This document shows positions 100 to 43,954 of a DNA stretch of 43,985 bases, in pieces. Source of the DNA: a virus; the IMG/VR virus record IMGVR_UViG_3300045988_075559. One strand, given 5' to 3'. The notes beneath the pieces were generated by a model that was not told where the DNA came from, ran no database searches, and saw nothing but the letters and a program-made list of their open reading frames with translations. A program made the position numbers and the translations under genes. How positions within the stretch are numbered: the first letter of the stretch is position 1; every line of letters begins with the position of its first letter.

Positions 100-514
100 G
101 TACTTCGAAGCTGCTGAAGTTAAACGGTATAGATTCCTCAAGCAGCTTACCTGCTTCCCAGTCCGCAAGTGTCAGCTCCGTGAACACGCAGTTATCTAAG
201 CGAATTCTTTCTGCTCCAAATGCTTCTGGATCTTCCAGGTTTGTGATGATCGTTGCTCTTGTTGCTTTTCCTTTTTTTAAATTCTCTGAAATCTTCTTTA
301 TGAAATAAGATGTCACTTTATTCAGCTTCAAGGTTCCAGATCCGCTAATCCCGGTTACCTTATACCCCTTTTCCAGCGTTCCGGTTCTCTTAACTTCTGT
401 CGTGTCAAGCTTCATTTTCGCCTGCAAAGCTGTCGTTTCTGCCATGTAGTCATTGTCTATCCAGCACTCTCCAAAAGTGCCGTTGACAACTCTGTCATCT
501 GTATAATTATTCCT
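80..514 (-). CDS. Tail tube protein (XkdM-like), proposed AGG start
   Basis: The ORF-track Met (445) is internal. The upstream in-frame codons NNYTDDRVVNGTFGECWIDNDY continue an XkdM-type N-terminus. There is no ATG/GTG/TTG in frame back to the sheath stop (527-529). AGG 512-514 lies 7 nt after GGAGG (522-526). Stop is TAG 80-82. Confidence 0.8.
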   Translation of the reverse strand, partial: RNNYTDDRVVNGTFGECWIDNDYMAETTALQAKMKLDTTEVKRTGTLEKGYKVTGISGSGTLKLNKVTSYFIKKISENLKKGKATRATIITNLEDPEAFGAERIRLDNCVFTELTLADWEAGKLLEESIPFNFSSFEVLNTIDA

Positions 515-3147: not shown

Positions 3148-4302
3148 TCATACTCCTGTAACAGTTGCATCTTTAATTGTCAGCTGCCCGTTCACGAACG
3201 CTTCTTCGTCTTTCACCGTGCAGTCTTCCCTTTCGATTGCCCTGAAGATTGTAAGATCTTCTTCAAATGCATTCAGTTCTCCGATCTGGGCGATGTTAGA
3301 TGTCATAAGAGTCATCTGGTTTCTATCCCAGAATTTGATACCCTCTTTCAAATCTCCGATAATAACTGGTATCTTTCTACTTCCTGCTGTCTTTGTATCG
3401 GATGGCATATCGGAGTTTGGAATAACTTTGACAGGAACAATTGTTGATCCAGCGCAAAGTCTAAGCTGCATTGGATTTGCAGGATCCGGCTGGAGAAGAT
3501 ATCTTCCTTCGTTATCCTTTAATGTATCAAGCCACTGTAACCCATCGTCGTTTGTCACAATTGCAGAAGTAGGTTTAAATGCCTGTCCAAGCGTGATATT
3601 CAATGCTTTCTTGATATCATCAAGATCTTTCATTGCTGTTACATCCTTTGTCGCAATCTGCTCAAGAATCATTTTATTTCTTGTGACTCTTGACTCATCC
3701 GCAATCCATGTTGTCAAAGCTCCCGTAATATTTGCATCTGTATCCGCAAGAAGTTCATTTGTGCAAGGAAAATATCCTGCATATTTTTCAATCTCGTATG
3801 AGATTCTTTCGAACTGCGGGGTTGTTCCAGCTGTTATCTTTCCACCTTCTCCCACTTTCGCAAACCCAGTCTGCTGCGCACGTTTCTTATAGGTTCTCTG
3901 GCCTTTGTTTGTTGTTACATTTTCTACATCAACCAGGCTGATCAGAGAGAATTTTGCGCCTCTGTATGTATTGATCTGTGTCTGGATGTCTTCCGGGACT
4001 GTATATCCTCCATCTGCAGGTGTGCCTTCTACCATAGTTGCGTTTCGGAATCCTCTTCTTGCAGCATTAGCAAATTCTTTGATAGAGTTATTTTCTAACG
4101 GTTTCGGTTCCTGTGATGGATTGGCTGTTCCATCTCCGTCTGGATCCATGATGTCTTTCAGAAGGTCAAACTGTTCCTGCATATCTTTAAGTTCTTCCTT
4201 GGCTGTTCTTGCTTCTTCCAGCTTTCCCTGCTCTACCAGGGACTGTACCATTGTTTTTTTCTCATTAATAGAGTTTAAAAGTTCTAATAATTTTTTATTC
4301 CT
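3148..4302 (-). CDS. Major capsid protein (HK97 fold type), proposed AGG start
   Basis: Capsid-like 367-aa ORF downstream of the protease. AGG 4300-4302 is 5 nt after GGAGG (4308-4312) and adds NKKLLELLNSINEKKT, a coiled-coil N-terminus. No ATG/GTG/TTG lies in frame before 4251, and that ATG lacks an SD. Confidence 0.85.
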   Translation of the reverse strand, partial: RNKKLLELLNSINEKKTMVQSLVEQGKLEEARTAKEELKDMQEQFDLLKDIMDPDGDGTANPSQEPKPLENNSIKEFANAARRGFRNATMVEGTPADGGYTVPEDIQTQINTYRGAKFSLISLVDVENVTTNKGQRTYKKRAQQTGFAKVGEGGKITAGTTPQFERISYEIEKYAGYFPCTNELLADTDANITGALTTWIADESRVTRNKMILEQIATKDVTAMKDLDDIKKALNITLGQAFKPTSAIVTNDDGLQWLDTLKDNEGRYLLQPDPANPMQLRLCAGSTIVPVKVIPNSDMPSDTKTAGSRKIPVIIGDLKEGIKFWDRNQMTLMTSNIAQIGELNAFEEDLTIFRAIEREDCTVKDEEAFVNGQLTIKDATVTGV

Positions 4303-4982: not shown

Positions 4983-6252
4983 CTCCTTCACCTCCCTGTG
5001 TGTTAACTCCGTAAGCCGCGCCTATATGTGTTATTGGCTGATACGTTCCGTTTACCATGTTGACATCTCCTCCGTCCACGAAAGGAAGATCAAGGAGATC
5101 TCTCCCCTCATTGATCGTATAGATTCCGTTCTGCACGTATCCAGTTATTACTTCCTTCTGTGTCTTTGAATCCGTTCTCAATAATGCTTTTTCGTTGAAT
5201 TTAAAATAATATCCTTCTTTTTTCTCAGTATCAGAAAGACATTTATAGTTTATCTCCTGCTCGTACTGTGACAATCTATAGCTCATCGTGTCCACCAGGA
5301 ATGCCAACTGCTGGCTTTCAGAATTTGAATAGCTTGACTTATCATAATCGTTTAGCTGATTTGGTTTAATTCCGAATGCTGCTGCAATCTGCAATGCCGT
5401 ATATTTTTTTATCTCTGCATACTGCGCATCTGCCAGAGTTACGTTTAGTGGCTGCAGTGTCATACCAACTGGTACCGCCACCACTTTACCTGCGTTTTTA
5501 GCGCCTGAAAGTAATGCGTTGTATTCCTTTTGCAAGGCCATACGCTTTGGTTTATCAAGGTCTCCTGTATACTGCAACGCTGCCTTTGCGGTTAATCCGC
5601 TAGCATACAGCTGATTCAAGTATTTCTGTGACTCCACTGCGCCCGAAATTGAATCCTGTAAGATCTGCCTTACCGGTTTTCCCATGATTCCATTAAGTGT
5701 GCACCATGTTTTAAAGTGCATAACATTATCCTGTGAAAAAGTGTATGTCTTTCCGGTCTTAGGATCGCTGTATCGATAATACAGCCTTCCTGCGTCTCCG
5801 AACACTCCCACATCATCCATTAGCACATCCACATAATTGCTCTGCATAGGCCAGAATGAAAGAATGTTGTATTCTCCTCCATATCTTCCCTTTTTCTCGA
5901 ATTTCGTCTGTATCCATACATACGCATTTCCATAATGTTCACAATTATATTCTATCGTGCCCCAGAACGTCGCCGGAGTCATGATCTGATTTGGTCTGTT
6001 CATAAGGAGCCATGAAGCTCTCGTCGGATCTGCCCGTATTTTTCCCTTATCGGTCTGCTTATAAAATTTCAGTGGCATTTTCCCCATTGTTTCTGAAAGC
6101 ATTTTTAAGCATGTAAAATACGTTACTTCTCCAATTGCATTTCGTGGGGTTTTTGGATCAATTCCAAGCCACTCCATTAGCCTTTCATCATCTATTGATG
6201 TAGGCTCTCCAACAAGGGAATTCCACATTTCTTTAATTTTCTGTAGAATCCT
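4972..6252 (-). CDS. Portal protein (HK97 family), proposed AGG start
   Basis: Portal-like 418-aa ORF after TerL. AGG 6250-6252 is 7 nt after GAGGAG (6260-6265) and adds ILQKIKE. The ORF-track ATG 6226-6228 has no SD. Confidence 0.8.
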   Translation of the reverse strand, partial: RILQKIKEMWNSLVGEPTSIDDERLMEWLGIDPKTPRNAIGEVTYFTCLKMLSETMGKMPLKFYKQTDKGKIRADPTRASWLLMNRPNQIMTPATFWGTIEYNCEHYGNAYVWIQTKFEKKGRYGGEYNILSFWPMQSNYVDVLMDDVGVFGDAGRLYYRYSDPKTGKTYTFSQDNVMHFKTWCTLNGIMGKPVRQILQDSISGAVESQKYLNQLYASGLTAKAALQYTGDLDKPKRMALQKEYNALLSGAKNAGKVVAVPVGMTLQPLNVTLADAQYAEIKKYTALQIAAAFGIKPNQLNDYDKSSYSNSESQQLAFLVDTMSYRLSQYEQEINYKCLSDTEKKEGYYFKFNEKALLRTDSKTQKEVITGYVQNGIYTINEGRDLLDLPFVDGGDVNMVNGTYQPITHIGAAYGVNTQGGEGDGD

Positions 6253-7996: not shown

Positions 7997-8502
7997 ATTG
8001 CACCAAACCGGTTTTCAATTTCTTTCTGCTGCTTATTCACTTTTGCCGTGCCGGCTTTCAGTCTCGAATCAATTGTCAATCCACACAAGGCAGCAAAGCG
8101 TCGCATTTCTTCCGCATATCCTTTCTGAATGTCTACCATCGGATTCTTTACGACAATTACTCCGGTTCTGGTTTCTCTGTCAACATAATATGTCTGCTGA
8201 CTTAATATTTCTGTGGCTTTTACATAGTTTGCGAACGCATTACAATAGCCTCCGATATTATTCCTGTCCAGGTTTCCGACTATATTTAGTTTATCCAACT
8301 CTTTTATGATCCTGCGCCATTCTTTTTTTGCCACATCATCTATCAGCCATGTCGGAGGACGTTTGAGCTGGTTTTTCTCTGTTCTTACCTGGTCTTCTGC
8401 GTCTGCTTTCTTTTGTCCTTCTACTATTGTCAGGTGCTTTTTCTGCAAGCTGACTGGTTTCATTGGTCTTGCCCTTGTCCTCCCTCCTCTCTGGCCTGCC
8501 AA
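7993..8502 (-). CDS. terS: Terminase small subunit (P27 family)
   Basis: TTG 8500-8502 gives MAGQRGGRTRARP, the usual family N-terminus. ATG 8542-8544 is an alternative. Neither has a clear SD. Confidence 0.65.
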   Translation of the reverse strand: MAGQRGGRTRARPMKPVSLQKKHLTIVEGQKKADAEDQVRTEKNQLKRPPTWLIDDVAKKEWRRIIKELDKLNIVGNLDRNNIGGYCNAFANYVKATEILSQQTYYVDRETRTGVIVVKNPMVDIQKGYAEEMRRFAALCGLTIDSRLKAGTAKVNKQQKEIENRFGAI

Positions 8503-9001: not shown

Positions 9002-9072
9002 TAGCGGGAGACGGATTCGAACCGCCATTCCAGGCTAAGGAGGCCTGTAAGTTTCCGTTACTTTATCCCGCG
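9002..9072 (-). tRNA. Initiator-like tRNA with anticodon CCU (decodes AGG)
   Basis: 71-nt cloverleaf with acceptor CGCGGGA/UCCCGCU and C1 opposite U72. D stem AAGU/ACUU (A11:U24); anticodon arm CAGGC-CUCCUUA-GCCUG; T arm GGCGG-UUCGAAU-CCGUC; A73. No encoded CCA. Confidence 0.75.
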
Positions 9073-9079
9073 GTAATTA

Positions 9080-9153
9080 TGGACATTCTGAGATTTGAAC
9101 TCAGGACCGTCCGGTTATGAGCCGGATGCTCTGACCAGCTGAGCTAAATGTCC
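9080..9153 (-). tRNA. tRNA with anticodon CAU, elongator type (Met or Ile2)
   Basis: 74-nt canonical cloverleaf: GGACAUU/AAUGUCC (G1:C72 paired), D arm GCUC-AGCUGGUCA-GAGC, anticodon arm UCCGG-CUCAUAA-CCGGA, T arm CUGAG-UUCAAAU-CUCAG. Confidence 0.85.
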
Positions 9154-27146: not shown

Positions 27147-27353
27147 TTATACATTTTCTTCATTTTCAATAAAATTCTGTACATCTTCTTCCTCCTCTGT
27201 TTCTTCTGGAATATAAACGTCTGTCATTGCTGCCAGATACTGAATTGTTACGTTCTGGTTTTCAATGATTTTTTTCTGCTTTTCTACGGTTGCTCTGAGG
27301 TTCTCGTCCTCTGCCGCTTCCGCAGGTGTCTGAGTCATTTTTCTTACTTCCAT
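27147..27353 (-). CDS. Hypothetical acidic protein (68 aa)
   Basis: ATG 27351-27353 follows AAAGGGTGAAGAAC. It overlaps the RT ORF 3' end by about 90 nt. Confidence 0.4.
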   Translation of the reverse strand: MEVRKMTQTPAEAAEDENLRATVEKQKKIIENQNVTIQYLAAMTDVYIPEETEEEEDVQNFIENEENV

Positions 27354-28383
27354 GTTCTTCACCCTTTCTTAACTGTTTTAAATATTTCTGAGTCCTTTGT
27401 TTTACTTTATACGAATTTCCTTTATCAGCATTATTTTCCCAGGAATTGTGATGTTCATCTACTTTTTCCGGTTCAAGTTCTCCTCTCTGTGATTTATGAA
27501 CCATCCTCACAAGAGTTTTTCTTTCATGCTTTACACTATCTGAGTTAAGCGTCATGATTATCCTTCCTGTTTCTGTCAGCCGATAGTCGAATCCCAAAAA
27601 TGTAAATCCTTTTTCAAGCGGTGTTATGTGTGATTTCTTTTCATTTGCTTCCAGCCCGTATATCTGCAATTGCTTCATTATCTCACCGAAAACTCTCTCA
27701 GCCTGTTTTCTTGTTTTAACAAGAATCCAGAAATCATCCATGTATCTGATATTGTATTTTACATGCAACTGTTCTTTGATGTAATGATCTAATGGATTCA
27801 GAAGCGAAATACCGGCAATCTGTACCATTTGAGATCCTGGATTGTATCCGGTTTCTCCTGCGTACTGGTCTCGTAAAACTCCACACGACATTTCTGTTGT
27901 ATCCTTATCCGTCAGATTCCTTATTTGCCTTTCCACATCACTGTGCCGCATGTTTAGGTAGTATCCATGTATGTCAACCTGAACTATCCATCCTTTTGTG
28001 CCGTATCTGCAGTAATAATTCCATAGATATTTTTTAACCAGTGCTCTTGCAAAGTCTGTTCCCTTTCCTGTCTGGCAGGCGCAATTTGAATAAGTGAATC
28101 CCTTTGTCATTTGAGGATAAAGAGAATTATCATTAATGCTCCTTTGATATACCCGATCCTTAAACGGAATACTGAGAGCTTCCCGGCGTTTCGGATATGT
28201 TATCAAGACTGTTTTAGGCTTCCCATTCTTCCATGTTCCGTCTTGATGCTGATGTTTCATCCGGAGTATATTTTCTTCTCCATTTAACAAAAACGACTTA
28301 ACTGATGGTTTCCATGTTACTCCATTCTTACATTTCAGCATTGATTCGTATAAACTATCATAGCTTGTTATATGATCTTTCAT
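27262..28383 (-). CDS. DGR reverse transcriptase
   Basis: YMDD box (IRYMDDFWIL) and a DGR-type ...NPGSQMVQIAG... motif. It lies downstream of the TR. The last about 30 aa may be non-native read-through. Confidence 0.85.
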   Translation of the reverse strand: MKDHITSYDSLYESMLKCKNGVTWKPSVKSFLLNGEENILRMKHQHQDGTWKNGKPKTVLITYPKRREALSIPFKDRVYQRSINDNSLYPQMTKGFTYSNCACQTGKGTDFARALVKKYLWNYYCRYGTKGWIVQVDIHGYYLNMRHSDVERQIRNLTDKDTTEMSCGVLRDQYAGETGYNPGSQMVQIAGISLLNPLDHYIKEQLHVKYNIRYMDDFWILVKTRKQAERVFGEIMKQLQIYGLEANEKKSHITPLEKGFTFLGFDYRLTETGRIIMTLNSDSVKHERKTLVRMVHKSQRGELEPEKVDEHHNSWENNADKGNSYKVKQRTQKYLKQLRKGEEHGSKKNDSDTCGSGRGREPQSNRRKAEKNH

Positions 28384-28694: not shown

Positions 28695-29126
28695 TTAAGA
28701 GTATCTTTCTATGTCAGATTCCCGCCATTTTTTAATATAATTTCTCACTTTTACTGTTTGTTCTGACCAATATTCTACCCTTTTTCCTTTCAGGTGAAAG
28801 AGTGGATGCGCAAGCCCAATCAGTGCAAGTAAGTTGTTACAATCCAGAATCGCCTGACGCTGCAGTTTGCTTCTCCAGGCCCATAGCTCTTTCTTATTCT
28901 TTTCTGTTACCCGGATATTGTTTGCGGTCCAGGCATTTATATAAATGTCTTTCGCTGTCCGGATGATATCGTCCGTGAGCGCAGATTGATATTCCGGAAG
29001 AAATACCTTTTTATTCTTGCAGATCTGAATCGTGTAGACCGCCAGCTCTCTTGCGTACCATACTGCATTTAACTGTCTATTCTGCGGTGTGTCCGGTACA
29101 TTTCTCTTACCTGCTTTAACTGCCAT
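28695..29126 (-). CDS. avd: DGR accessory variability determinant (Avd-like)
   Basis: 143-aa basic helical protein between the target gene and the TR. ATG follows AAAGGAAAAGAA. Confidence 0.7.
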   Translation of the reverse strand: MAVKAGKRNVPDTPQNRQLNAVWYARELAVYTIQICKNKKVFLPEYQSALTDDIIRTAKDIYINAWTANNIRVTEKNKKELWAWRSKLQRQAILDCNNLLALIGLAHPLFHLKGKRVEYWSEQTVKVRNYIKKWRESDIERYS

Positions 29127-29180: not shown

Positions 29181-30377
29181 TTATACGACGACAAGCGGGG
29201 CATACACATTCGAGTACCATGCGCTCGTGTCGTCGACGGAGCCGGATGTGTTCACATTCATGACGCTGTAAGCGTTGCCGCGGCCAGCCGAACGAGAAAA
29301 CACACCCTGAGGTGATGTGTGGTTCGCAGCTGAATATCTAATCATAATCGGATAGGTTTTCCATGGTTCAATCGGTGTTTTGGAATTTGTTCTCCGCTGC
29401 CAGTATTCGTGAACTGCTCCCTCCTCTTTGCTCATGTTTACGTTCATCTGAGACATGGATGCAAGGAATACTCTGTCGTATGTGATATCTGTCACGCCAC
29501 CATCATTGACGGTATTCGCAAGGGTAGTTACTTTGACCGTCTTTAATGCTGCCAGCATATCCGCAGGCATTCCGCAGAGGAAACCGTCTTTTGTGGCTAA
29601 CTGACTCGGCGCAATATCCCAGTCGTCCTGTTTTGTCCACCATTTGCCCTTTGGTTGTGTTGAATTGAGCCACTGACGGGCCGCTGAGTATTTCCAGCGA
29701 TTCCAGCCGTATGCTGATTCCTGCATACTGTTAAGATTTCCGTTTCTGGTTGCGTACTGCATGGTTCCCAGATCTGTTCCGTCTGATCCGGATGTAACTG
29801 CCACGGTTTCAATTGTGGTGATTCCGTCTGCAGCGTAAGAGGTTGCTTTCCAGTTGCTCGGCACAATGTCCGGCATCTGTGTGAATCCATATACTGATCC
29901 ACCTGCAGGTACGGCCTTGGTCAAAGTAAACTGCCAGTATGTGTCTGCTTTTGCATTATTTCCCCAATCCTTTTCTAATTTGAGGTGATAAGTTCCTGCT
30001 GCCAGTCCATCCGGACAGCGCAAGAATGCACGGTTGCTAAACTGTAATCCGAATGGGGTTGTGTAATGCGCTTCCAGGAATGTTCCTGAAATGACTTCTC
30101 CGTCCTCCAGTTCTACATTTTCAAAATGTGTAACCTGCCACGGGAAATCATATTCCTGGCCGGCGGCAGTATCTGTCCATTTCTCAAGAATCTGGTCTCC
30201 GAAATCAAAAATTTTCTGAGCGTACCCATTTCTGGAAAGCCCGCTGATCTGGTCCCACGTTGATATGTTTTCCAGGTTTGCCGCCTGTGTAAATGCCATT
30301 GTCTGCAATGCCTGTGAAATTTCTTTCATAGTGCTTTCGCGTGGAAAATTAATGAGTGTCTGGTCTCCTGTTGCCAT
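29181..30377 (-). CDS. DGR target protein (putative receptor-binding tail protein with C-terminal variable region)
   Basis: ATG is 7 nt after AAGGAGG. The C-terminus ...GVFSRSAGRGNAYSVMNVNTSGSVDDTSAWYSNVYAPLVVV carries the VR. Confidence 0.85.
   Translation of the reverse strand: MATGDQTLINFPRESTMKEISQALQTMAFTQAANLENISTWDQISGLSRNGYAQKIFDFGDQILEKWTDTAAGQEYDFPWQVTHFENVELEDGEVISGTFLEAHYTTPFGLQFSNRAFLRCPDGLAAGTYHLKLEKDWGNNAKADTYWQFTLTKAVPAGGSVYGFTQMPDIVPSNWKATSYAADGITTIETVAVTSGSDGTDLGTMQYATRNGNLNSMQESAYGWNRWKYSAARQWLNSTQPKGKWWTKQDDWDIAPSQLATKDGFLCGMPADMLAALKTVKVTTLANTVNDGGVTDITYDRVFLASMSQMNVNMSKEEGAVHEYWQRRTNSKTPIEPWKTYPIMIRYSAANHTSPQGVFSRSAGRGNAYSVMNVNTSGSVDDTSAWYSNVYAPLVVV
29190..29316 (-). 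repeat. DGR variable repeat (VR)
   Basis: The last about 43 codons of the target gene. TR Asn codons correspond to G/Y/S/D in the VR. Confidence 0.9.
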
Positions 30378-31429: not shown

Positions 31430-31726
31430 TCAGTCGATTCGGTCTATATTGTATTCCACCGCACAGATGTGCTCAATTCTGCATCCTCTGGCCTCATTCC
31501 ATCCCTCGGCAAAATACGCCACATCTGCAGTTGCTAACAATTCCAGAGACTTTCCAAGGAACCATAAAGGCTTTGCGTCTGCTGGTGCTGCCTGAAAGAA
31601 TGAATCAATCACTTCCACTGGTTCACCTATTCGTTTTTCTGCGCTTTCAATTGCTTCCTTTCTTACTGCAAGGATCTCTTCATCCGTTTTTCCTCTCATT
31701 GGCTGACTAATGAATAATTTCTTCAT
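31430..31726 (-). CDS. Small conserved protein (resembles nucleoside 2-deoxyribosyltransferase-like / DUF4406 proteins, from memory)
   Basis: ATG is 6 nt after AAGGAGG. Motifs MKKLFISQPMRGKTDEEI...IDSF...PLWFLGKSLELLATADVAYFAEGWNEARGCRIEH. Confidence 0.45.
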   Translation of the reverse strand: MKKLFISQPMRGKTDEEILAVRKEAIESAEKRIGEPVEVIDSFFQAAPADAKPLWFLGKSLELLATADVAYFAEGWNEARGCRIEHICAVEYNIDRID

Positions 31727-31737
31727 TTTCTTCCTCC

Positions 31738-32478
31738 TTAAAATTTTAATCTGTATTTCAATCGGCTTCTTTTTCTGCTAAAACGCACCTTATCTACGGT
31801 TGGATCAGAATACATTTTGAGTCTGCCCTTTACAACCTTAAAGGCGGCAAAATGGACGTTTCCGGTTTCGCCTTTAAGTTCAGTTTCTTTCTGGTGGACA
31901 TAATTATCAATGTCTTTCTTTCCCTCTTCTACTCTGCCGGGAATAGATGCTGCAACTTTCTGTGCTTCTCCGGCATAGTATTTCGCATTGTCTTCTTTTT
32001 GCTCCGGATAATCTCCTCTTCCGTGTGCCCAGGCCTCTGCCTGGTCTCTGGCTTTTTCTGACCGGTCGGCTGCCTGATTGACTGCCTCGACCGTCTCTCT
32101 GAAAATCTCCGGTTCTTCCGGCGATCCGGGAACCTCCGGTTTTGGTCTTGCTTTTATTGGTATGGTTATTTTATGTTCTGTATTTCCAGAATTATTTTCA
32201 CTCAGGTATATGAATGCGTATATTTTGTAATTTTGGTCGATTTCTTCGTTCTCCAGCATGGAATCCGGAATTGGCACATCTGTTACAGAATCTTTCGTTG
32301 TTCCTATTCTTGTTACAGATGTTCCGCCTGTTTCTTCCAATGAGAAATGTATCTCAATAGCCGGCCGTAGAGTAAGTCCCTGAATTCTTAAAATTTGTCC
32401 ATAATCCCACTGCCACGCTGTTTCGGCCCGAATATTTGTTTCTGCTTCTGAAAAAACAGCAGTGATTATATTATTCCT
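31738..32478 (-). CDS. Fibre-module virion protein (family not recognised), proposed AGG start
   Basis: The frame is open for 46 codons upstream of the ORF-track TTG (32340, no SD). AGG 32476-32478 is 6 nt after GGAGG (32485-32489) and overlaps the rSAM 3' end. Confidence 0.6.
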   Translation of the reverse strand, partial: RNNIITAVFSEAETNIRAETAWQWDYGQILRIQGLTLRPAIEIHFSLEETGGTSVTRIGTTKDSVTDVPIPDSMLENEEIDQNYKIYAFIYLSENNSGNTEHKITIPIKARPKPEVPGSPEEPEIFRETVEAVNQAADRSEKARDQAEAWAHGRGDYPEQKEDNAKYYAGEAQKVAASIPGRVEEGKKDIDNYVHQKETELKGETGNVHFAAFKVVKGRLKMYSDPTVDKVRFSRKRSRLKYRLKF

Positions 32479-33796
32479 CTTCTGCCTCCTTCTTTAGCAA
32501 ATTCCATTCTTTTTCCGTGATAATATCCAATGCCCATTCTTTCGGGATGTATAGTTTCATTCTTTTATTGATTTTATTTTTTCTGTAATATCTGTTCCAG
32601 AAATAGGCATTCGCCAGTGCTCTTGCTTTGTGCATAATGCAAATATATGTCGCCCTGGCGTCCGGTGTTCCGAAAATCTGGTAATTGTATGCAGTGCACC
32701 AGCTGCAGCCTTCTGCGATAGGACAGTTAAAGCACTCGTCTGTGCTCTGTGTTCTCCTGTCAATTTTTTTCAAGCGCTCTACGCGGCATCTGTCGCATTC
32801 CGTCTGACAGATTCCATAATCTACATCTCCGATTGAATAAGGTTCCTGTTGATTTCCCAGAGAGCTTTCCATGTAGCGCAAACACGGATATATAATGCCT
32901 GCCGGATCTACGGCCAGCATCACTCCGTTTCCGCCACACCAATTCTCCAGATCGTCCTCCTGTTTCGGATGGAAGAACTCCTCTTCAAACAGCGAACAAA
33001 AATAATCATTTTCGAAGTCCATGTTGTTTTCCAAAATGTAGTCTGCGAGACGCTTCATTTCGTTATATAGTACGGTGGCGTGAATTGGTTTCCATCCATC
33101 CTCGTATACGCAGTTCGCATTTATTTCGCAATATCCCAGCTCAAACATATGGACGATCGCATCGTATGTATGCATGACATTGGCCGGCGCGATAGTGATC
33201 TTTGAACCCATGTAATTTCCTTTGTCCATCCAATCTTTCGCCGCAGATACTGCCAAGTCATACGAAGGGCTTCCATCTGAGAATATGCGGCAGGAATCAT
33301 GCAGTTCTTGATTCCCGTCAACTGTGACTGAGAAAGACAATCTGTTCTTCCATTTATCAAGTACTCTTCCGACTTCCGGATCATGATATAGTGTTCCGTT
33401 TGAGCATATAGAAAACATCGTTTTATCAAGCCACGGGTGATTAAGTTCTATCATTCTGTCAATTGCGTATGAGCATATCTGGTCTATTAATTTCGCTTCT
33501 AACAATGGCTCACCGCCAATGAAATCAATGATCAATCCCGGAGATTTATGGGGGTTGATATATTCTTTCATCCCTTTTTCTCCGGTTAACAATAAATCTA
33601 TCATTTTCTCAGCCGTTTCAAGGCTCATTTTGCGTTTTCCTTTTTTGATCTGGTAGCAGTATGTGCACGCCAGATTACAATCATCGGTGACCTGAAATGT
33701 CACTGTCTGTGTTAAAATTTTTTCTTTTTCATTTGCCTGATGAAGTTCCGGATATAATCGGCTTAATTGTTCTGTGTACTGCTCAGTTCTTTTCAT
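32471..33796 (-). CDS. Radical SAM / SPASM-domain peptide maturase (CXXX-repeat-target type)
   Basis: ATG 33794-33796 is 8 nt after GAAGG. CNLACTYC (CX3CX2C), GGEPLL, and C-terminal Cys clusters (CGGNG...YPC, CFNCPIAEGCSWC). Confidence 0.85.
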   Translation of the reverse strand: MKRTEQYTEQLSRLYPELHQANEKEKILTQTVTFQVTDDCNLACTYCYQIKKGKRKMSLETAEKMIDLLLTGEKGMKEYINPHKSPGLIIDFIGGEPLLEAKLIDQICSYAIDRMIELNHPWLDKTMFSICSNGTLYHDPEVGRVLDKWKNRLSFSVTVDGNQELHDSCRIFSDGSPSYDLAVSAAKDWMDKGNYMGSKITIAPANVMHTYDAIVHMFELGYCEINANCVYEDGWKPIHATVLYNEMKRLADYILENNMDFENDYFCSLFEEEFFHPKQEDDLENWCGGNGVMLAVDPAGIIYPCLRYMESSLGNQQEPYSIGDVDYGICQTECDRCRVERLKKIDRRTQSTDECFNCPIAEGCSWCTAYNYQIFGTPDARATYICIMHKARALANAYFWNRYYRKNKINKRMKLYIPKEWALDIITEKEWNLLKKEAEEE

Positions 33797-34124
33797 TTTC
33801 AATACCTTCGATTTCACAATTGCACATTATGTTGATCTCAAGTTTCGTCGAATTGTTTGGAAGCATCCAATTATATTTATGTTTCTTTATTGCTCCCGGT
33901 ATATACAACTTTTCAATTTCCTGAACTGCCAGTTTGTACTCCGCTTCCAGTTCTACTCCTTTTTTTTGATATGCTTTGAATGCATCAGAATTAATAATAT
34001 CCGGATCGTTCGGATGTGATTCAATAATTCTCTGGATAACATCTTTTGCAAATCCCAGTTCAAAGTTTAATCTTTCAATGTATTCTGCCTTTTCTCGTTC
34101 GATTTCTACAATTATCTTTCTCAT
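33783..34124 (-). CDS. Small helical protein, candidate rSAM accessory partner (113 aa)
   Basis: ATG 34122-34124 is 5 nt after AAGGGAG. It overlaps the rSAM start by 14 nt. Confidence 0.55.
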   Translation of the reverse strand: MRKIIVEIEREKAEYIERLNFELGFAKDVIQRIIESHPNDPDIINSDAFKAYQKKGVELEAEYKLAVQEIEKLYIPGAIKKHKYNWMLPNNSTKLEINIMCNCEIEGIENEKN

Positions 34125-34482: not shown

Positions 34483-35142
34483 TCATTTTACCGCAGATGA
34501 AACCTGCCCATAGCATGTATCTTTGCATGTATTTCCGCAATTAGTAGAACAATTTGACGAGCATGAAGTACTGCATCCTCCGCAAATCGTAGAACAGCTA
34601 TTTGAACACGATTCCGCGCATCCTCCCATGCATGAAGATGTACATTCGGATCCGCATGAACTTCCGCATGAGCTGCATCCAGAACAGCCAGTGCATGATG
34701 TCGAACACGATGCTGTGCATCTATTGTCGCATCCAGTACAGTATCCTGAACATGTCCCAGAGCATCCAGAGCAATCGTATGAACAACTGTACCCGCATCC
34801 AGTACATCCATTTTTGCAGCCGCCCGAACAGTCATCTGCGCATGTTGCAAAGCAATTGCCTCCGCATGCATTTGTGCAGTCTGCGCAAGTCTGCGCACAA
34901 TTTGTCGTGCAGGTCTGGAAGCAATCCGTTTTGCAGCCACCCGAACAGTCATCTGCACATGTTGCCTGACAACCCGTACATTCATCCTCACATGCTCTGT
35001 TGCATAGCCTATCACAATTCCCACTGCATCCAGTTTTACAGCTGGTTGAGCATGCGGTTCCGCATGAGCTTCCGCAATTTCCTTTCGTCGTATTTTGACA
35101 ACTTGTCGCGCACTGAGTTCCGCAACTAGATGTACAAGCCCT
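34483..35142 (-). CDS. CXXX-repeat Cys-rich protein (219 codons, 54 Cys), proposed AGG start
   Basis: Absent from the ORF track. This 660-nt open frame, (AGG)ACTSSCGTQCATSCQN...CKDTCYGQVSSAVK, has no N-terminal ATG/GTG/TTG. AGG 35140-35142 is 8 nt after AGGAGG (35151-35156). Stop is TGA 34483-34485. Confidence 0.7.
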   Translation of the reverse strand, partial: RACTSSCGTQCATSCQNTTKGNCGSSCGTACSTSCKTGCSGNCDRLCNRACEDECTGCQATCADDCSGGCKTDCFQTCTTNCAQTCADCTNACGGNCFATCADDCSGGCKNGCTGCGYSCSYDCSGCSGTCSGYCTGCDNRCTASCSTSCTGCSGCSSCGSSCGSECTSSCMGGCAESCSNSCSTICGGCSTSCSSNCSTNCGNTCKDTCYGQVSSAVK

Positions 35143-35163: not shown

Positions 35164-35691
35164 TTAAGCTTTTATTGATGTAGTGCATCCCGCGCCGCAT
35201 GTATGTGTGCAGCCGCTCGAACAGCCGCCTGTGCAGCCGCCACAGCCGCCTGAACAGCCATCTGAGCACTGTTTTCCACATGTAGTGCTACAGTTTCCAG
35301 AGCACGAAGCGCACCCCATACAGGCAGATGCACAGGCCAGTTCGCATAGACCTGTGCAATTCCCCCTACACCCCGATACCTTTGCATCTTTCTGTATGTT
35401 CAGCATTTTGTCTGCGAAATTTTCCGCTCTTTCCAAAGTCATTTCAAGAGCAGTTCTTTCTTTTCTCAGACTGTTATCTTGCAGGAAATCATTGATTTCC
35501 AGAAGTGGATCAATAATCTTTTGAATGTGCTCATCTGAAACCTGTTTTCCATTCTGCGGCATGAAATCAAAATCATATTCCTGCGATGCATATTTCTTCA
35601 GTGAACCTCCCATTTGTTCTGCTGTTCTGCTCATCATTGTTTTTTTTACTTTTTCTTTGATCCGTTTCAAAGATTCAGCTGTTATAATCCT
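35164..35691 (-). CDS. Protein with helical N-domain and C-terminal CXXX-repeat tail (17 Cys), proposed AGG start
   Basis: AGG 35689-35691 is 7 nt after AGGAG (35699-35703). The ORF-track TTG 35670 lacks an SD. C-terminus: CRGNCTGLCELACASACMGCASCSGNCSTTCGKQCSDGCSGGCGGCTGGCSSGCTHTCGAGC. Confidence 0.7.
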   Translation of the reverse strand, partial: RIITAESLKRIKEKVKKTMMSRTAEQMGGSLKKYASQEYDFDFMPQNGKQVSDEHIQKIIDPLLEINDFLQDNSLRKERTALEMTLERAENFADKMLNIQKDAKVSGCRGNCTGLCELACASACMGCASCSGNCSTTCGKQCSDGCSGGCGGCTGGCSSGCTHTCGAGCTTSIKA

Positions 35692-38604: not shown

Positions 38605-40536
38605 TTATAGACCTTTGTATCTTCCTCCGTTAACAGCTGCTGTCACTTTCTTTCCCTTCCATTGGCTTACATTAAGCAATGCTCCGGAATTTGAGTAATC
38701 ACTTCCACCCATGCTCTCAAATTCTATGATTGACCATCCAGACGATGGATAATCCTGCCAATGTCCGTATGCGCTTCCATTTTTATCTCCCGCGTTCTTT
38801 TCGTCCGCGACAAGGCAGTTTAACTTTATTCCTCCTTCCAGAGTAAAGCTCACAAGGTCTCCGCAGGATCCGAAGTATTCCCCAACTGCAACAAGATAAT
38901 ACCCATCTATTGTCGCAATTCCGTGATCGCTTGCCCGTCCTTTAGCATTCCACACATTCGCGACTCTTCTTTGCATAGAGTCTCCATTCCACCTGCTGTA
39001 CCAATATGGATATATTGTGTAATCCCATGGGCATATCCCAGATTGCTGCAGTCCTGCTGGTATTGGTTTCGATGTCCCGGATATTGTTGTGTCATTTCCT
39101 GTCGAAGCCGTCGTAGTAGGATAATCTATATAGCAAAATCCAAGGACTGTGCTGCAGGATGGACCGTTACTTCTTTTTACGGTATCGCTCAGATTGCCTT
39201 CTATGGAAACCCAGTTGTTTCCGGACATACTTTCGATGATTCCAATGTGTCCAGATCCTCCGTAGATAACCAGTGCTCCAAGTCGTGGCGAACTTCCAAA
39301 CTTTCCCCTATCCTTATACCAGTCCATGACATTAAAACAATATGCTTCTTTTCCTCCTCCCATGAAGAGATCGCCGTGTCCTGTTTTATTGAATATGGCC
39401 CAAATGAACATACAGCACCATGCCGCATCCCACCCATAATAGGTCGTTATTTCATTATGATTGCTTCCTGGCGGGTTCTCGCCCACTCCAATCCAGGCTC
39501 TTGCCTGATTTAGCACATCCTCTAATGCGTTACTTGTCCCTGATCCGAAAGAACCTTCCGATGTTTCCTGTTCTTCATCCTCTTCCTGGATGTCCATAAT
39601 ATTTTTAAAAGCCAGTTCCAGTTTTGTGGTGTATAAACCGCCACTCCATTCATGGCTGTCATTTTCTATCCAAAACTTTCCCTTGAGGCCGGTTCTGGAA
39701 TCTTCTATGATCACTCCTAATCCGGAGATGCATCTGCAGTCTCCTATCATTGTCAGGCTTGATGTTTTATCAATCCCATGAAGTTCTGTCTTCGCTTCTG
39801 CTTTTCCATTCCCCGAATCTACAGATATAGAATTTTGAAAGATTCCGAATTTATCAGCCCACTTTGAATTACTTATGCTTCCTATCTTTCTATTATCCGA
39901 ATTGTATATGTACACTCGGTTTACCATGCTGTCAATGTTTTCAGAATAAGAGGATTCTACAATTCTTTCCCCCTGGCAAATGTGGAAATTGGGGATAACT
40001 TTTCCTTTTTGTATAACCTCCAATTTATCTCTGTTCATCTGGGCTATATATGGCTTTTTATTCTTCCTGTACGCTTTTGTATATGCAGCCATGATGATTT
40101 CATAATACGATCTTTCCTGGAAGAATATTTTTGGAATGTTTATTTTGGTTTTAGCCAGGTCTCCCGTTTTTACTTTTACATCCTTGCATACCAAGGATGT
40201 AATCTTTTCAGGCGTCTTGTTTGCAAATTTGTAGGTTCCCGACGATCTGAGTAAATGAATCATTCCGTCCTGTGCGGTATACGAAAGTTCCCCTGCCTCT
40301 GATTTTCTTTCCCTGCATGTTACCATCCCAATGAATTTTGTCTTTTTATCATCCGGATATCCTGGGTAAAATGTTATTTTATCTCCCAGTTTAATTCCCA
40401 GGTTCTTTACGTTTTTGTCATTTGGGCTATATGCAACATTAAATACTACTGATCTGGCCGCTTGTTTTGCGCTTCCCGACCAGCTTACCGATGTAACGTA
40501 CCCAGTTATATTCGTATCTTTCCAATTCAGTTTCAT
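38605..40536 (-). CDS. XkdQ-like baseplate hub protein fused to CHAP peptidase and a further C-terminal lytic-like domain (tail lysin)
   Basis: ATG 40534-40536 overlaps the upstream TGA. CHAP signature ...DAAWCCMFIWAIF...GHIGII...EGN. Confidence 0.65.
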   Translation of the reverse strand: MKLNWKDTNITGYVTSVSWSGSAKQAARSVVFNVAYSPNDKNVKNLGIKLGDKITFYPGYPDDKKTKFIGMVTCRERKSEAGELSYTAQDGMIHLLRSSGTYKFANKTPEKITSLVCKDVKVKTGDLAKTKINIPKIFFQERSYYEIIMAAYTKAYRKNKKPYIAQMNRDKLEVIQKGKVIPNFHICQGERIVESSYSENIDSMVNRVYIYNSDNRKIGSISNSKWADKFGIFQNSISVDSGNGKAEAKTELHGIDKTSSLTMIGDCRCISGLGVIIEDSRTGLKGKFWIENDSHEWSGGLYTTKLELAFKNIMDIQEEDEEQETSEGSFGSGTSNALEDVLNQARAWIGVGENPPGSNHNEITTYYGWDAAWCCMFIWAIFNKTGHGDLFMGGGKEAYCFNVMDWYKDRGKFGSSPRLGALVIYGGSGHIGIIESMSGNNWVSIEGNLSDTVKRSNGPSCSTVLGFCYIDYPTTTASTGNDTTISGTSKPIPAGLQQSGICPWDYTIYPYWYSRWNGDSMQRRVANVWNAKGRASDHGIATIDGYYLVAVGEYFGSCGDLVSFTLEGGIKLNCLVADEKNAGDKNGSAYGHWQDYPSSGWSIIEFESMGGSDYSNSGALLNVSQWKGKKVTAAVNGGRYKGL

Positions 40537-41230: not shown

Positions 41231-43396
41231 CTACGCTGTTTGTGGCATGTTGTCACTTGCCTCTTCGATTTTCCTTACAATCGCTTCTGCTATTTTATCA
41301 ATATCAGAATCATCTCGCACTACGATACTGTCTGCAAGCTTCGCAATTTTGACTATAAAGTTCTTCTTTGCCTCCTGGCGTGCCTTCTGTACAGATTCGT
41401 CGTGTGGATACACTCTGCTTCCAGATGGAAGATCTACAATCTCTCCACCTTTTTCACTGATCTGTACGATACCTCCCTGCCAGTTATCTGTGCCTTTCGC
41501 AAGAGTTGGGATTTGTGGTATGTTAAGGCCCTCCCAGCCTTTTCCTCCTATTCCGGGTACCCACTCAGGAACTGTAAAATGAATTGAATTAATCTTGCTG
41601 ATCGCTCCATTGACGATTGATATCACAGCATTAATTGGAACTTTTACCATATCAGCCAGTCCTGAGAATGCAGTTCCTACAAACTCCTTGCATCCATTCC
41701 ATACAGATTCCCAGTCTGTTTTAAACACACCGTTCAAAAAGGAGATAATTCCTTCGAACATAGTGAGTAACGCATCAATGGCAACTCCAATCGTATCAAA
41801 TGTTCCGACGATAAATTCTCCGGCGAAATTAAAGATTTCTTCGACTACCGGTCCGAATGTCTCTTTCAGGTATGATGCTATTTTTTCCACAAATTCTATG
41901 AACGGTTCTAATTGCGGTTTTACTGTCTGCCAGAATTCCACAAATCTATCTCCTATCTTCTGCAAAATAGGTGCGATTCTGTCCCAGTTTTTATAGATCA
42001 GCAGAGCCGCTGCTGCCACTGCTGCTGCCGCAATTCCAAATGGTCCTGTCATTATCTTCGCAATTCCCGAGAATCCTGAAGCACCCGTCAGTTTTGTAAT
42101 CGCACCACCTATTTTTCCAAAATTTGAGATTACTGTTCCGATTCCGGAGGACACTTTCCCGAACCCAAGTAAAACAGGTCCTACTGATGCCGCTACTGCT
42201 GCAAATTTGACTATCGTCTTCTGAGTTGCCGGTCCTAATTTATTCCATTTGTCCGTAAATTTCTGTATGGCATTAATCCCTTTTGTAACATACGGAATCA
42301 ACTGGTTCCCAATTGGTTGCAGCACATCTACCTGTATCGTTCTCCAAAGTCCTCCCAGAGCGCCTGATAATGTATCGTATTTTACATTTACCAGTTCTTC
42401 GACAGACTCCTTGCTTTTATCTATTGCATCACTCGCCGTCGACATAGAGGTTATAACCTGAGGTCCCAAATCTTCCCACATGGTTCCGAATAGGTTTACT
42501 CCAGCTGCACTCTGTGCTACCGGATCATCCATGGAAGCAAGTCCTTCTATGACTTCGTTGAATGCTTCTTTTGCAGTTTTCCCTCCAGCTCCAAACTTTT
42601 GTGCCATTTCGTCTGCATTCATCCCGAGAGCCTCGAATCCCTGTTTCGTCGTGTCTGATCCATCTATCGCTCTGATTGAGAATTCTTTTACCGCATCTCC
42701 GATCTTATCCAGATTGAAAGCTCCGTTCTGTGCACCGTTTGCGAATACAGAAAACATATCCTCTGCATCCAGTCCCAGCTTCTTGAACTGTACGGAGTAT
42801 TCGTCAATGTTGTCGAAGAGTTCATCTGAGAAATTCAATCCTGATTGCATGCCCTGAGTCATGAGATTGAATGCTTCTCTTGCTGATACCCCATAGTGCT
42901 TTATAAGTGCGTCGGCTGCTCTTGTGCTTTCTGCTACATCTACGTCAAACGTATCTGACAGCGTATATGCGTATTCCGTGCATCTCTGCAGGGCAGAATC
43001 GTCCAGATAGGACATATTCTGGTTGACAGTTGCCATTGCTTCCGCAACATCATTGATGGACTCACCAAAATTATCTTTATAGACATTGTTGATCATGTCT
43101 TTATATTTGCCCATCTCATCTGTTGCGGTACCTGTTGCCGCCGCAAACTGCTGAAATGCGTCCTGTGAATCAGAGGAAAATTTAATTGCTGCAGTTCCGA
43201 CTGCTGCCAGTGGTGCAGTGACCGACTTGGTCAATGTTTCTCCGGCAGATGTAAATGCATCTCCGGCATGAGAGAACACATCAGCAACATTGTTAAAACG
43301 TTTTTCCAGGTCACGAGCCTGGGCCGCCACCTGTTTTGATGGATCGCTGAAATCATCTATTAACTTAACAACTGCTGCAACCGTCTTACCTGCCCT
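41231..43396 (-). CDS. Tape measure protein, proposed AGG start
   Basis: AGG 43394-43396 is 10 nt after GAGGAG (43407-43412) and adds AGKTVAAVVKLIDDFSDPSKQ before the ORF-track GTG (43330, no SD). Helical and Gly/Ala-rich hydrophobic segments. Confidence 0.8.
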   Translation of the reverse strand, partial: RAGKTVAAVVKLIDDFSDPSKQVAAQARDLEKRFNNVADVFSHAGDAFTSAGETLTKSVTAPLAAVGTAAIKFSSDSQDAFQQFAAATGTATDEMGKYKDMINNVYKDNFGESINDVAEAMATVNQNMSYLDDSALQRCTEYAYTLSDTFDVDVAESTRAADALIKHYGVSAREAFNLMTQGMQSGLNFSDELFDNIDEYSVQFKKLGLDAEDMFSVFANGAQNGAFNLDKIGDAVKEFSIRAIDGSDTTKQGFEALGMNADEMAQKFGAGGKTAKEAFNEVIEGLASMDDPVAQSAAGVNLFGTMWEDLGPQVITSMSTASDAIDKSKESVEELVNVKYDTLSGALGGLWRTIQVDVLQPIGNQLIPYVTKGINAIQKFTDKWNKLGPATQKTIVKFAAVAASVGPVLLGFGKVSSGIGTVISNFGKIGGAITKLTGASGFSGIAKIMTGPFGIAAAAVAAAALLIYKNWDRIAPILQKIGDRFVEFWQTVKPQLEPFIEFVEKIASYLKETFGPVVEEIFNFAGEFIVGTFDTIGVAIDALLTMFEGIISFLNGVFKTDWESVWNGCKEFVGTAFSGLADMVKVPINAVISIVNGAISKINSIHFTVPEWVPGIGGKGWEGLNIPQIPTLAKGTDNWQGGIVQISEKGGEIVDLPSGSRVYPHDESVQKARQEAKKNFIVKIAKLADSIVVRDDSDIDKIAEAIVRKIEEASDNMPQTA

Positions 43397-43562: not shown

Positions 43563-43954
43563 ACTTCTTCTTCAGCGTCTTCTCCAAGTCCTGAGAGCTT
43601 TACGATTTCTGATGCAATGCTTCCAGTTTCCATTCCGAACAGAATCGCCGCAAGATCCTTTGGCGTAGAAGCCCCAAAATGTTCCATCAATTTCTGATCA
43701 GTCAGACATGGATCCACGACACCGTATACACAGCACATTAAATTAAAATCATATGTGGCATTCATGTCACGGTTTCCCTTTTTGTCATACAGCATGGCCT
43801 GAAGGGTGTTGTATCTTTTTCCTGATAATTCTCTAATCGTAATCTCTGCGTCTTCGCCTACCAGTTTGGCCAGCTTCTTTGATTTAATTTTTTTTGTCTC
43901 TTTCTCTGTGGCTTTTGCTTTATCTACGCTGAGTAACTTTTCAATTAAATTCCT
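43550..43954 (-). CDS. Tail assembly chaperone (XkdN-like), proposed AGG start
   Basis: Open frame of 52 codons upstream of the ORF-track ATG (43795) with no ATG/GTG/TTG. AGG 43952-43954 (= 66-68 in the left repeat copy) is 7 nt after GGAGG (43962-43966). Confidence 0.7.
   Translation of the reverse strand, partial: RNLIEKLLSVDKAKATEKETKKIKSKKLAKLVGEDAEITIRELSGKRYNTLQAMLYDKKGNRDMNATYDFNLMCCVYGVVDPCLTDQKLMEHFGASTPKDLAAILFGMETGSIASEIVKLSGLGEDAEEEVKNL
43556..43562 (-). promoter_or_regulatory. Slippery heptamer A AAA AAC
   Basis: It is in the zero frame (GT)A AAA AAC, two codons before the chaperone stop. Confidence 0.7.

Follow-up and report, generated by a model that had tools for sequence, protein, structure and literature searches.

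AGG as a probable start codon of late genes in a virus that encodes an initiator-type tRNA(CCU)

How is a gene translated when its conserved reading frame has no canonical start codon at its beginning? This question is raised by a gene of the tail-fibre module on the minus strand of IMGVR_UViG_3300045988_075559, a virus record of IMG/VR comprising 43,985 nucleotides (nt); the whole of this stretch is referred to below as the window. The first-pass annotation, made from the sequence alone, had proposed that the gene begins at an AGG codon within the end of a radical SAM (rSAM) gene. In the present study, we examined the proposed start, the corresponding region in relatives, the other late genes of the window, and two tRNA genes encoded by the same DNA. 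From these comparisons, we consider that the AGG at 32478-76 is the start codon of the gene and that it is read by a phage tRNA with the anticodon CCU, and we assign this interpretation a probability of about 0.78.

On the minus strand, the rSAM frame ends in ttg cta aag aag gag gca gaa gag gaa TAA, with the stop at 32473-71. In the +1 frame relative to rSAM, a TAA at 32496-94 is followed by aga agg agg cag aag AGG (32478-76) aat aat ata atc act gct, and the fibre-module frame is then open from the AGG to the stop at 31738. The first ATG, GTG, or TTG in this frame is the TTG at 32340-38, 46 codons after the AGG, and it has no Shine-Dalgarno (SD) sequence within the preceding 22 nt (ggctattgagatacatttctca). 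The features of the region are as follows.

32485-32489, minus strand: SD core GGAGG, within the 3'-terminal part of the rSAM gene, separated from the AGG by the 6-nt spacer CAGAAG
32476-32478, minus strand: AGG, proposed start of the fibre-module (BppU-like) gene, 6 nt after GGAGG, within the spacing range of the ATG genes of the window
32341-32475, minus strand: the 45 codons between the AGG and the TTG given by the open reading frame (ORF) track, predicted to encode the N-terminal half of a beta-sandwich domain
31738-32478, minus strand: fibre-module gene, predicted BppU-like adaptor, 246 codons plus stop
32471-33817, minus strand: rSAM gene, SPASM-type maturase-like (PHROG 1802, E 2e-78)

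The rSAM gene is called as 441-442 amino acids (aa) in relatives, and its true start in the window is perhaps the ATG at 33796. The predicted adaptor begins with X-NNIITAVFSEAETNIR, where X is the AGG-encoded position 1. All of the elements named in the first-pass annotation (the GGAGG, the 6-nt spacer, the AGG at 32478-76, the 46 extra codons, the TTG without an SD, and the quoted peptide) were recovered on the minus strand. Its placement of the AGG 3 nt before the rSAM stop also held: counted from the last base of the AGG, the stop begins 3 positions further on, with two bases between, and the two ORFs overlap by 8 nt (AGGAATAA). The arrangement AGG-RA-TAA is kept in relatives. As in coupled overlapping genes, only a few nt separate the fibre-module start from the stop of the preceding gene, and the overlap is compatible with the translational coupling that had been suggested; coupling to rSAM would not be needed, because a full SD is present at the AGG.

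We then considered whether the 46 upstream codons belong to the protein, as had been proposed. The 246-residue version matched PHROG 16164 with an E value of 1e-79, residues 5-223 aligning with positions 2-227 of the profile. A protein search yielded 1013 homologues, mostly of 243-247 aa and with full query coverage, and the full-length homologues begin with MNNNIITAVF, MNNILTAVF, MGKITTAVF, and similar sequences. Thirteen family-invariant residues (W22, Q23, D25, Y26, G27, Q28, L30, G34, L35, L37, E42, H44, and F45) fall within the extension. In the AlphaFold2 model, the protein consists of an N-terminal beta-sandwich (residues 1-110; predicted local distance difference test score, pLDDT, about 80-90), a helical stalk, and a small C-terminal beta domain. 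Four of the eight strands of the N-terminal domain precede the TTG (residues 4-8, 15-17, 29-33, and 40-46; pLDDT 82-88). The structure prediction that had been proposed as a check therefore places half of the strands of this domain in the 46 upstream residues, and a TTG-started product would, according to the model, lose half of the anchoring domain.

A Foldseek search with the N-terminal domain gave 3uh8 and 4v96 (TP901-1 ORF48/BppU), 6v8i (80alpha), and 9m8o (NF5), with E values from 2e-5 to 3e-3 and a probability of 1.0, and against BFVD the domain matched entries named 'BppU domain protein'. Pfam searching of the adaptor gave neither BppU_N nor any other family at E <= 0.01. Like BppU (the baseplate upper protein, ORF48 of the lactococcal phage TP901-1) and the 80alpha and NF5 adaptors, the predicted protein combines an N-terminal beta-sandwich with a helical stalk and is encoded in a baseplate/fibre module. 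It differs from BppU in that the sequence identity is only 9-14%, in the lack of a Pfam BppU_N match, in its short and poorly modelled C-terminal part, and in the type of phage, the window phage being myovirus-like, with a sheath and a tube. On the predicted structure, the fibre-module gene encodes a BppU-like baseplate/fibre adaptor.

To compare the junction with those of relatives, 80 IMG/VR loci as well as loci from ENA and Logan were collected. In the window and in all 25 loci in which rSAM abuts the adaptor gene, there is no ATG, GTG, or TTG for 32-173 codons, whereas the loci without an abutting rSAM have a normal ATG at the adaptor N-terminus. The 25 loci come from independent metagenomic or viral contigs; the startless junction is not a product of chance. 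The first canonical codon varies with the lineage: it is a TTG, an ATG 4 codons earlier, a GTG at codon 72, or a GTG at codon 173. Three diverged types of junction were found, AAG AGG AAT AAT ATA ATC, AAG AGG AAT AAC ATT ACA, and AAG AGG GAT AAC ATC ATA, and both GGAGG and AGG are invariant in all three, that is, in the window and the 25 rSAM-bearing relatives. The AGG aligns with the ATG of the MNNI-type relatives, which supports its assignment as the start codon. From the ATA onward, the window DNA is identical to the ATG-started gene of the relative L002 (gaaaggaaagacaATG AAT AAC AAT ATA ATC). Between the window and the relative L006, the 46-codon leader shows 14 synonymous and 9 nonsynonymous codon differences. 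The expectation that the upstream stretch should be conserved as coding in relatives was thus borne out, with an open frame and an excess of synonymous changes across diverged lineages. Taken together, the sequences indicate that the 46 upstream codons are real coding sequence.

Hundreds of adaptor copies in databases are annotated as 200 or 204 aa, starting with MHFSLEE or MEETGG (clusters P0004, P0006, P0048, P0058, P0060, P0062, P0067, and P0069), and the contigs of these 200-204-aa relatives all have rSAM directly upstream and the same junction. As AGG is not among the start codons available to gene callers, the copies are apparently shortened, and other AGG-start genes are expected to be truncated just as systematically. 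A sequencing or assembly error was considered and ruled out, as the same AGG occurs in dozens of independent IMG/VR, ENA, and Logan assemblies. In GenBank phages, a search with the junction DNA gave no match, and the protein search found only gp16 of Ruminococcus phage phiRg519T2, which has the N-terminal 140 residues in common and a normal start.

These data bear on two other explanations of the junction. One is that the gene encodes a 200-aa protein from the TTG at 32340, the 46 codons being a decaying remnant left after the rSAM cassette replaced the original start. The lengths given by public gene callers fit this view, as does a recombination junction located exactly at the start, the DNA being identical to L002 from the ATA onward. 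We nevertheless regard it as very improbable, since the leader remains open with synonymous changes in excess in diverged lineages, the first canonical codon is not conserved between lineages and the TTG is without an SD, and a protein truncated in this way would keep only four of the eight strands of its N-terminal domain and lack many of the residues that are invariant there. The other explanation is a programmed +1 frameshift at the GAA TAA that ends rSAM, which would fuse rSAM to the adaptor in the manner of prfB. The adaptor frame is indeed +1 relative to rSAM, the shift window ends in a stop codon, and GGAGG lies upstream. Against this, the P-site tRNA could not re-pair after the shift (GAA to AAU, or GGA to GAU in the relative L048), 8 nt separate the SD from the P-site codon, as compared with about 3 nt in prfB, and the homologues are stand-alone proteins of 243-247 aa with their own ATG. 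In addition, the SD-AGG combination also occurs in genes described below, such as the tube gene and the Cys-rich gene, where it follows an intergenic stop and there is no ORF to shift from. We consider a frameshift highly improbable.

If AGG serves as the start codon of the adaptor, is it used elsewhere in the window? Of the coding-strand codons that lie 5-9 nt past a GGAGG and head an open frame of at least 45 codons, ATG was the commonest (12 cases) and AGG the second commonest (10 cases). Ten other late genes have an SD followed, after 5-10 nt, by an AGG that heads an open frame, with no canonical start at the homologous N-terminus; these genes add to the case for AGG as a start codon. They are as follows.

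512-514, minus strand: AGG of the tail tube gene, 7 nt after GGAGG; PHROG 365, residues 3-143 aligned with profile positions 4-144
1604-1606, minus strand: AGG of the tail sheath gene, 9 nt after GGAGG; PHROG 1480, residues 2-358 aligned with profile positions 2-352 of 353
4300-4302, minus strand: AGG of the major head gene, 5 nt after GGAGG
6250-6252, minus strand: AGG of the portal gene, 7 nt after AGGAG
8473-8475, minus strand: AGG of the small terminase (TerS) gene, 7 nt after GGAGG
35140-35142, minus strand: AGG of a gene for a 219-aa Cys-rich protein with CxxxC repeats, 8 nt after GGAGG; missed by the ORF track
35689-35691, minus strand: AGG of a gene for a 175-aa protein with a Cys-rich C-terminus, 7 nt after AGGAG
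38612-38614, minus strand: AGG of a DUF2577 gene of the baseplate region, 9 nt after GGAGG
43394-43396, minus strand: AGG of the tape measure gene, preceded by an SD
43952-43954, minus strand: AGG of an XkdN-like tail assembly chaperone gene, 7 nt after GGAGG

In the case of the 219-aa Cys-rich gene, the sole canonical start is an ATG at 34629, 48 codons before the stop. In profile alignments, the AGG corresponded to the first position of the sheath family and to position 1-2 in the tube family. Overall, the AGG occupies the codon of profile position 1 in the sheath, tube, major head, and TerS genes and is at or next to the first codon in the portal and tape measure genes. The predicted sheath protein begins with X-GLPTMNVVFVAAAR, X being the residue at the AGG, and the predicted tube protein with X-NNYTDDR; the corresponding peptides of the major head protein are X-NKK... 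and LLELLNSINEK.

The other late genes also bear on the most obvious alternative start of the adaptor, namely a near-cognate AUH codon (ATA at 32469-67 in the window) used by the host initiator, possibly by termination-reinitiation after rSAM, with the AGG just part of a purine-rich ribosome-binding site. Across the three types of junction, it reads ATA, ATT, or ATC and always lies 1 nt past the TAA; a weaker GAGG lies 6 nt upstream of the ATA, and AUU, AUA, and AUC are known as weak start codons in bacteria (PMC5499595). An ATA start was in fact favoured at first, as position 2 of the PHROG profile corresponds to the second Ile, and was dropped when the other startless genes were found to have AGG without AUH: the tube, sheath, major head, TerS, and 219-aa Cys-rich genes contain no AUH codon at or next to the AGG. 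The ATA is 15 nt from the conserved GGAGG. Moreover, Ile is a conserved internal residue in the ATG-started homologues (MNNI, MGKI, MEI), so that coding alone explains the conservation of the AUH codon. An AUH start would also fail to account for the tRNA(CCU) with its initiator-like features and for its occurrence alongside AGG starts, both of which are described below. We consider this alternative unlikely; in the sequences compared, AGG is the only common denominator of the startless genes.

The start codons of these genes were then compared across relatives. In the sheath gene, for which 78 loci with 10-kb flanks around sheath homologues were studied, AGG is codon 1 in 38/38 close relatives (80-99% identity, two subclades, different spacers), and the Gly-Leu-Pro codons that follow are kept through synonymous changes. 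In distant relatives (40-46% identity), by contrast, all 40 have ATG, or GTG/ATG nearby (ATG GGC GCA CCA). Similar replacements were observed in the other genes. The major head gene has AGG in 20/20 close relatives and ATG in 24/24 distant ones, and the tube gene has AGG in 38/38 close relatives and ATG at the same or an adjacent codon in distant ones. For TerS, the close relatives read AGG gca aga cca and the distant ones ATG gca aga cca. The tape measure gene has AGG in 35/35 close relatives, as against ATG or GTG at an adjacent codon, and the portal gene has AGG in 18/18, as against an ATG one codon upstream; the DUF2577 gene has AGG in 28/28 close relatives and gave no match in distant ones.

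The chaperone gene is polymorphic among close relatives themselves. ATG is found at exactly the AGG codon in 34 of them, including L131, which is 99% identical, and AGG occurs only in the window and in L167. ATG and AGG therefore interchange at a single codon position of this gene. The SD of the chaperone gene covaries with the start, being AGGGG with ATG and AGGAGG with AGG. This polymorphism between genes that are about 99% identical (L131 and L167) provides a natural pair for assessing relative start strength.

What could read AGG as a start codon? Two tRNA genes are encoded at 9002-9153 on the minus strand, where the block of packaging and structural genes begins; they are flanked by the HNH/TerS genes and by a putative sigma-r4-like regulator, a putative late activator.

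9002-9072, minus strand: tRNA(CCU), whose anticodon reads AGG; detected by ARAGORN and Rfam
9080-9153, minus strand: tRNA(CAU), elongator-type with G1-C72 (GGACAUUUAGCUCAG...), detected by ARAGORN/Rfam; probably Ile2 or Met

The sequence of tRNA(CCU) is CGCGGGAUAAAGUAACGGAAACUUACAGGCCUCCUUAGCCUGGAAUGGCGGUUCGAAUCCGUCUCCCGCUA. Its acceptor stem is CGCGGGA/UCCCGCU, with C1xU72, A73, G2:C71, and C3:G70, and it has A11:U24, G29:C41, and G30:C40. As references, we used E. coli tRNAfMet and argW (tRNA-Arg(CCU)), both verified at 100% identity against genes annotated as tRNA-Met and tRNA-Arg, respectively. The 5' acceptor strand of tRNA(CCU) agrees with tRNAfMet at 6/7 positions and with argW at 1/7, cmscan marks the pair 1:72 as non-standard, and argW has U11:A24 as compared with A11:U24 in the phage tRNA.

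Eleven variants of tRNA(CCU) from about 70 contigs were then compared. Positions 1 and 72 are unpaired, as C1xU72, in 11/11 variants, as in initiators, whereas the other stem positions are paired in 100% of them, with compensatory changes at 30:40 (G-C/A-U) and 51:63 (U-A/C-G). The formylation determinants G2:C71, C3:G70, and A73 are invariant, and the stem is the same as that of E. coli tRNAfMet. A11:U24 (columns 11:23 of the alignment), the purine 11:pyrimidine 24 combination of initiators, was present in 11/11, G29:C41 in 11/11, and G30:C40 in 10/11. The CCU anticodon is constant in all copies, and position 37 (U or A) and the pair 31:39 vary. Compared with bacterial tRNAfMet, tRNA(CCU) shares the CGCGGG acceptor, the 1:72 mismatch, A73, G2:C71, C3:G70, A11:U24, and two G:C pairs adjoining the anticodon loop, and differs in having CCU instead of CAU, C1xU72 instead of C1xA72, a pair other than G:C at 31:39, and a short D loop and variable loop. 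Because the acceptor and D-stem features are those of an initiator and the three G:C pairs and the CAU anticodon are absent, the molecule is best described, as far as its sequence indicates, as an initiator-derived tRNA with a new anticodon and not as tRNAfMet.

The same gene could be an ordinary elongator tRNA-Arg, AGG being the start codon and the host initiator or some other factor reading it at low efficiency. In favour of this view, the anticodon stem lacks its third G:C pair, U can occupy position 37, and ARAGORN labels the tRNA as Arg, a label taken from the anticodon; phage tRNA-Arg genes for AGR codons are common. Neither the paired 1:72 nor the pyrimidine 11:purine 24 combination of an elongator tRNA-Arg(CCU) was found, however, and the invariant 1:72 mismatch goes together with a tRNAfMet-type acceptor and with A11:U24 in place of an elongator Y11:R24. 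Internal AGG codons are also rare in the window, 61 of 10,390 codons (5.9 per 1000) as against 237 AGA, so that a supplementary elongator tRNA for AGG would be poorly motivated. Furthermore, the most abundant virion proteins (major head, sheath, and tube) use AGG, on which tRNAfMet is very inefficient. We therefore judge the elongator explanation to be improbable.

The companion tRNA(CAU) is nearly always next to tRNA(CCU) in relatives, 6-66 nt apart, and may be a tRNA-Ile2 for AUA (21 per 1000 codons here) or a Met elongator. PHROG and Pfam scans of the remaining window genes revealed no gene for a formyltransferase, a synthetase, or an initiation factor, and a promoter scan around the window tRNAs gave no usable signal.

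The distribution of tRNA(CCU) follows that of the AGG starts. Among the AGG-sheath loci with at least 8.2 kb of upstream DNA, tRNA(CCU) is found 7.4-7.6 kb upstream in 30/30; in the 8 of 38 loci in which it was not seen, the upstream DNA is in every case shorter than 6.3 kb. No tRNA of any kind is carried by the 40 loci with a canonical sheath start. At the adaptor, tRNA(CCU) is present in 14/14 contigs of at least 28 kb with an AGG junction and in 4/34 contigs with a canonical start. In IMG/VR, 56 contigs combine the acceptor and T-loop pattern of this tRNA with the anticodon CCU, and none combines it with CGU or CUU.

When 185,579 species genomes were searched with the 5' half of tRNA(CCU), only Ruminococcus sp. 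AF41-9 and one metagenome-assembled genome of Lachnospiraceae were found. The copy in Ruminococcus sp. AF41-9 adjoins a companion tRNA(CAU) and a Cys-rich ORF resembling the HNH gene that follows the tRNAs in the window. The host group is thus likely to be Lachnospiraceae/Ruminococcus of the gut.

Initiator-like tRNAs were also seen in other phages. Two divergent tRNA(CCU) genes, which are initiator-like, have a mismatch of C1xA72, and encode the CCA, are carried by L219 (IMGVR_UViG_3300012979_000087) and L221 (IMGVR_UViG_3300031760_000113), which are unrelated phages. In L219, the ORFs for the major head and portal proteins have AGG directly after a stop, and the next 75-77 codons include no canonical start; one of these ORFs is preceded by an in-frame ATA, and the SD spacing is 10 nt. 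L219 as an independent AGG-start phage is suggestive only. Six other IMG/VR contigs (L228, L229, L230, L232, L233, and L234) have initiator-like tRNAs with a CGCGGG acceptor and a 1:72 mismatch and the anticodons CAA (reading UUG), UAU (reading AUA), or AAU (reading AUU). The tRNA of L232 resembles a Firmicutes tRNAfMet with a changed anticodon.

The observations on which our interpretation draws are the sequence anatomy of the junction, the homology of the extension, the presence of AGG at or beside codons equivalent to ATG, the initiator-type features of the tRNA, and its occurrence together with AGG starts. In the mechanism that we propose, the GGAGG 6 nt upstream would position the ribosome at the AGG, and the phage's own initiator-type tRNA(CCU) would make this codon work as a start by pairing with it in the P site as tRNAfMet does with AUG, so that the 246-codon adaptor is made. 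The tRNA would probably be expressed with, or just before, the late operon. It would have to be aminoacylated; Arg is favoured by C35 and U36, and Met is possible. About 11 late genes (those for TerS, the portal, major head, sheath, tube, chaperone, tape measure, DUF2577, and two Cys-rich proteins as well as the adaptor) would use AGG and would depend on expression of the phage tRNA, because AGG would be a private start codon. Synthesis of virion proteins may thereby be gated by the phage tRNA.

Several points weigh against this interpretation. At the adaptor junction, the AGG is also constrained by the overlapping rSAM codons, and its invariance there is, for that reason, weak evidence when taken alone. 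The in-frame AUH codon 1 nt after the rSAM stop could be an additional or alternative start. In the tRNA, the three consecutive G:C pairs of the initiator anticodon stem are absent, 31:39 being C:G in 6 variants and U.G in 5; the variant L210 has A30:U40, and position 37 is U in the window tRNA. MetRS (methionyl-tRNA synthetase) normally needs a CAU anticodon, and every copy has CCU instead of the CAU of initiators. As for arginyl-tRNA synthetase (ArgRS), C35 and U36 are present, and its A20 element is not conserved, position 20 being A or U among the variants. Finally, AGG combined with the normal initiator tRNA is rejected by initiation factor 3 (IF3) proofreading (PMC6868393), and the proposed mechanism hence depends wholly on a functional phage tRNA(CCU).

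In its strongest form, the proposed AGG initiation would be a natural orthogonal system, in which tRNA(CCU) is charged with Arg, about 11 virion proteins start with (formyl-)Arg, and particle synthesis is locked to the phage tRNA. This version is a tentative one, and we think it rather less probable than not. If it is true, the tRNA lock could be a timer of late genes or a barrier against their expression in the lysogen or by satellites and competitors.

Some neighbouring genes deserve mention. The two Cys-rich proteins (34483-35142 and 35164-35691, minus strand), with dense CxxxC-type repeats, are encoded just upstream of rSAM (32471-33817) in the tail-fibre module; their only family match is PHROG 6085, whose function is unassigned. 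They may be a virion protein with cross-links installed by rSAM, or a substrate similar to a ribosomally synthesized and post-translationally modified peptide. A diversity-generating retroelement is located at 27262-28383, 28695-29126, and 29181-30377 on the minus strand, with a reverse transcriptase (PHROG 1423) and Avd (PHROG 3206), and its target is probably the DUF6273 tail-fibre/receptor-binding protein gene directly upstream. A gene similar to DUF4406/nucleoside 2-deoxyribosyltransferase (31430-31726, minus strand, PHROG 355) separates the BppU-like adaptor gene from the fibre gene that follows, and a protein of the nucleotide-metabolism type is unexpected inside the fibre module.

How does the putative AGG system compare with known ones? 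By analogy, its closest natural counterpart would be stop-codon recoding, and its closest mechanistic counterpart engineered initiators with altered anticodons. In gut phages, stop codons are recoded by phage suppressor tRNAs, and this recoding has been proposed to regulate late genes (bioRxiv 10.1101/2021.08.26.457843; PMC9523058). In both cases, a phage tRNA would give a new meaning to a codon found mainly in late, structural, or lytic genes, translation would depend on that tRNA, and standard gene callers mis-annotate the genes. The window phage would differ in using a sense codon for initiation and an initiator-type tRNA, with no in-frame stops; the only tRNAs detected in the window have the anticodons CCU and CAU, and the late ORFs are open in the standard code.

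Anticodon mutants of tRNAfMet are classic. Engineered initiator tRNAs with altered anticodons (bioRxiv 10.1101/2021.05.25.445580; PMC11744186) resemble tRNA(CCU) in having a tRNAfMet scaffold with a changed anticodon and, as is proposed for tRNA(CCU), in starting at the complementary non-AUG codon after an SD. They are laboratory constructs, used in E. coli or in vitro, whereas tRNA(CCU) is natural and phage-borne and occurs in dozens of contigs together with about 11 matching genes. Natural non-AUG starts of bacteria that use the normal initiator, such as GUG, UUG, the AUU of infC, and the GTC of sigR (PMC5472188), likewise place a non-AUG codon after an SD at the head of a conserved protein, with a possible regulatory use. 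However, they rely on near-cognate pairing with tRNAfMet and on IF3 control, whereas AGG has a central mismatch and is normally rejected (PMC6868393). In the literature that we searched, which did not cover all journals, we found neither a natural phage initiator tRNA with a non-CAU anticodon nor phage AGG starts, and the system is apparently undescribed.

If the interpretation is confirmed, annotation would be affected: the products that present gene callers overlook or truncate would include the major head, sheath, tube, TerS, and Cys-rich proteins, and such programs would have to accept AGG starts in phages that encode a tRNA of this kind. The proposal is open to experiment, since a prophage copy of tRNA(CCU) is present in a cultured isolate, Ruminococcus sp. 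AF41-9 (QUDO01000003.1). If confirmed, the system would offer a ready-made natural pair of orthogonal start codon and tRNA for engineering, and it would be the first natural case found of a virus that reassigns a sense codon as a start by means of its own initiator tRNA. If the initiator-like tRNAs with UAU, CAA, and AAU anticodons in unrelated phages act in the same way, the strategy would be generally viral. Initiation at AGG, if confirmed, would be the counterpart of stop-codon recoding at the level of initiation and would represent a new layer of late-gene control.

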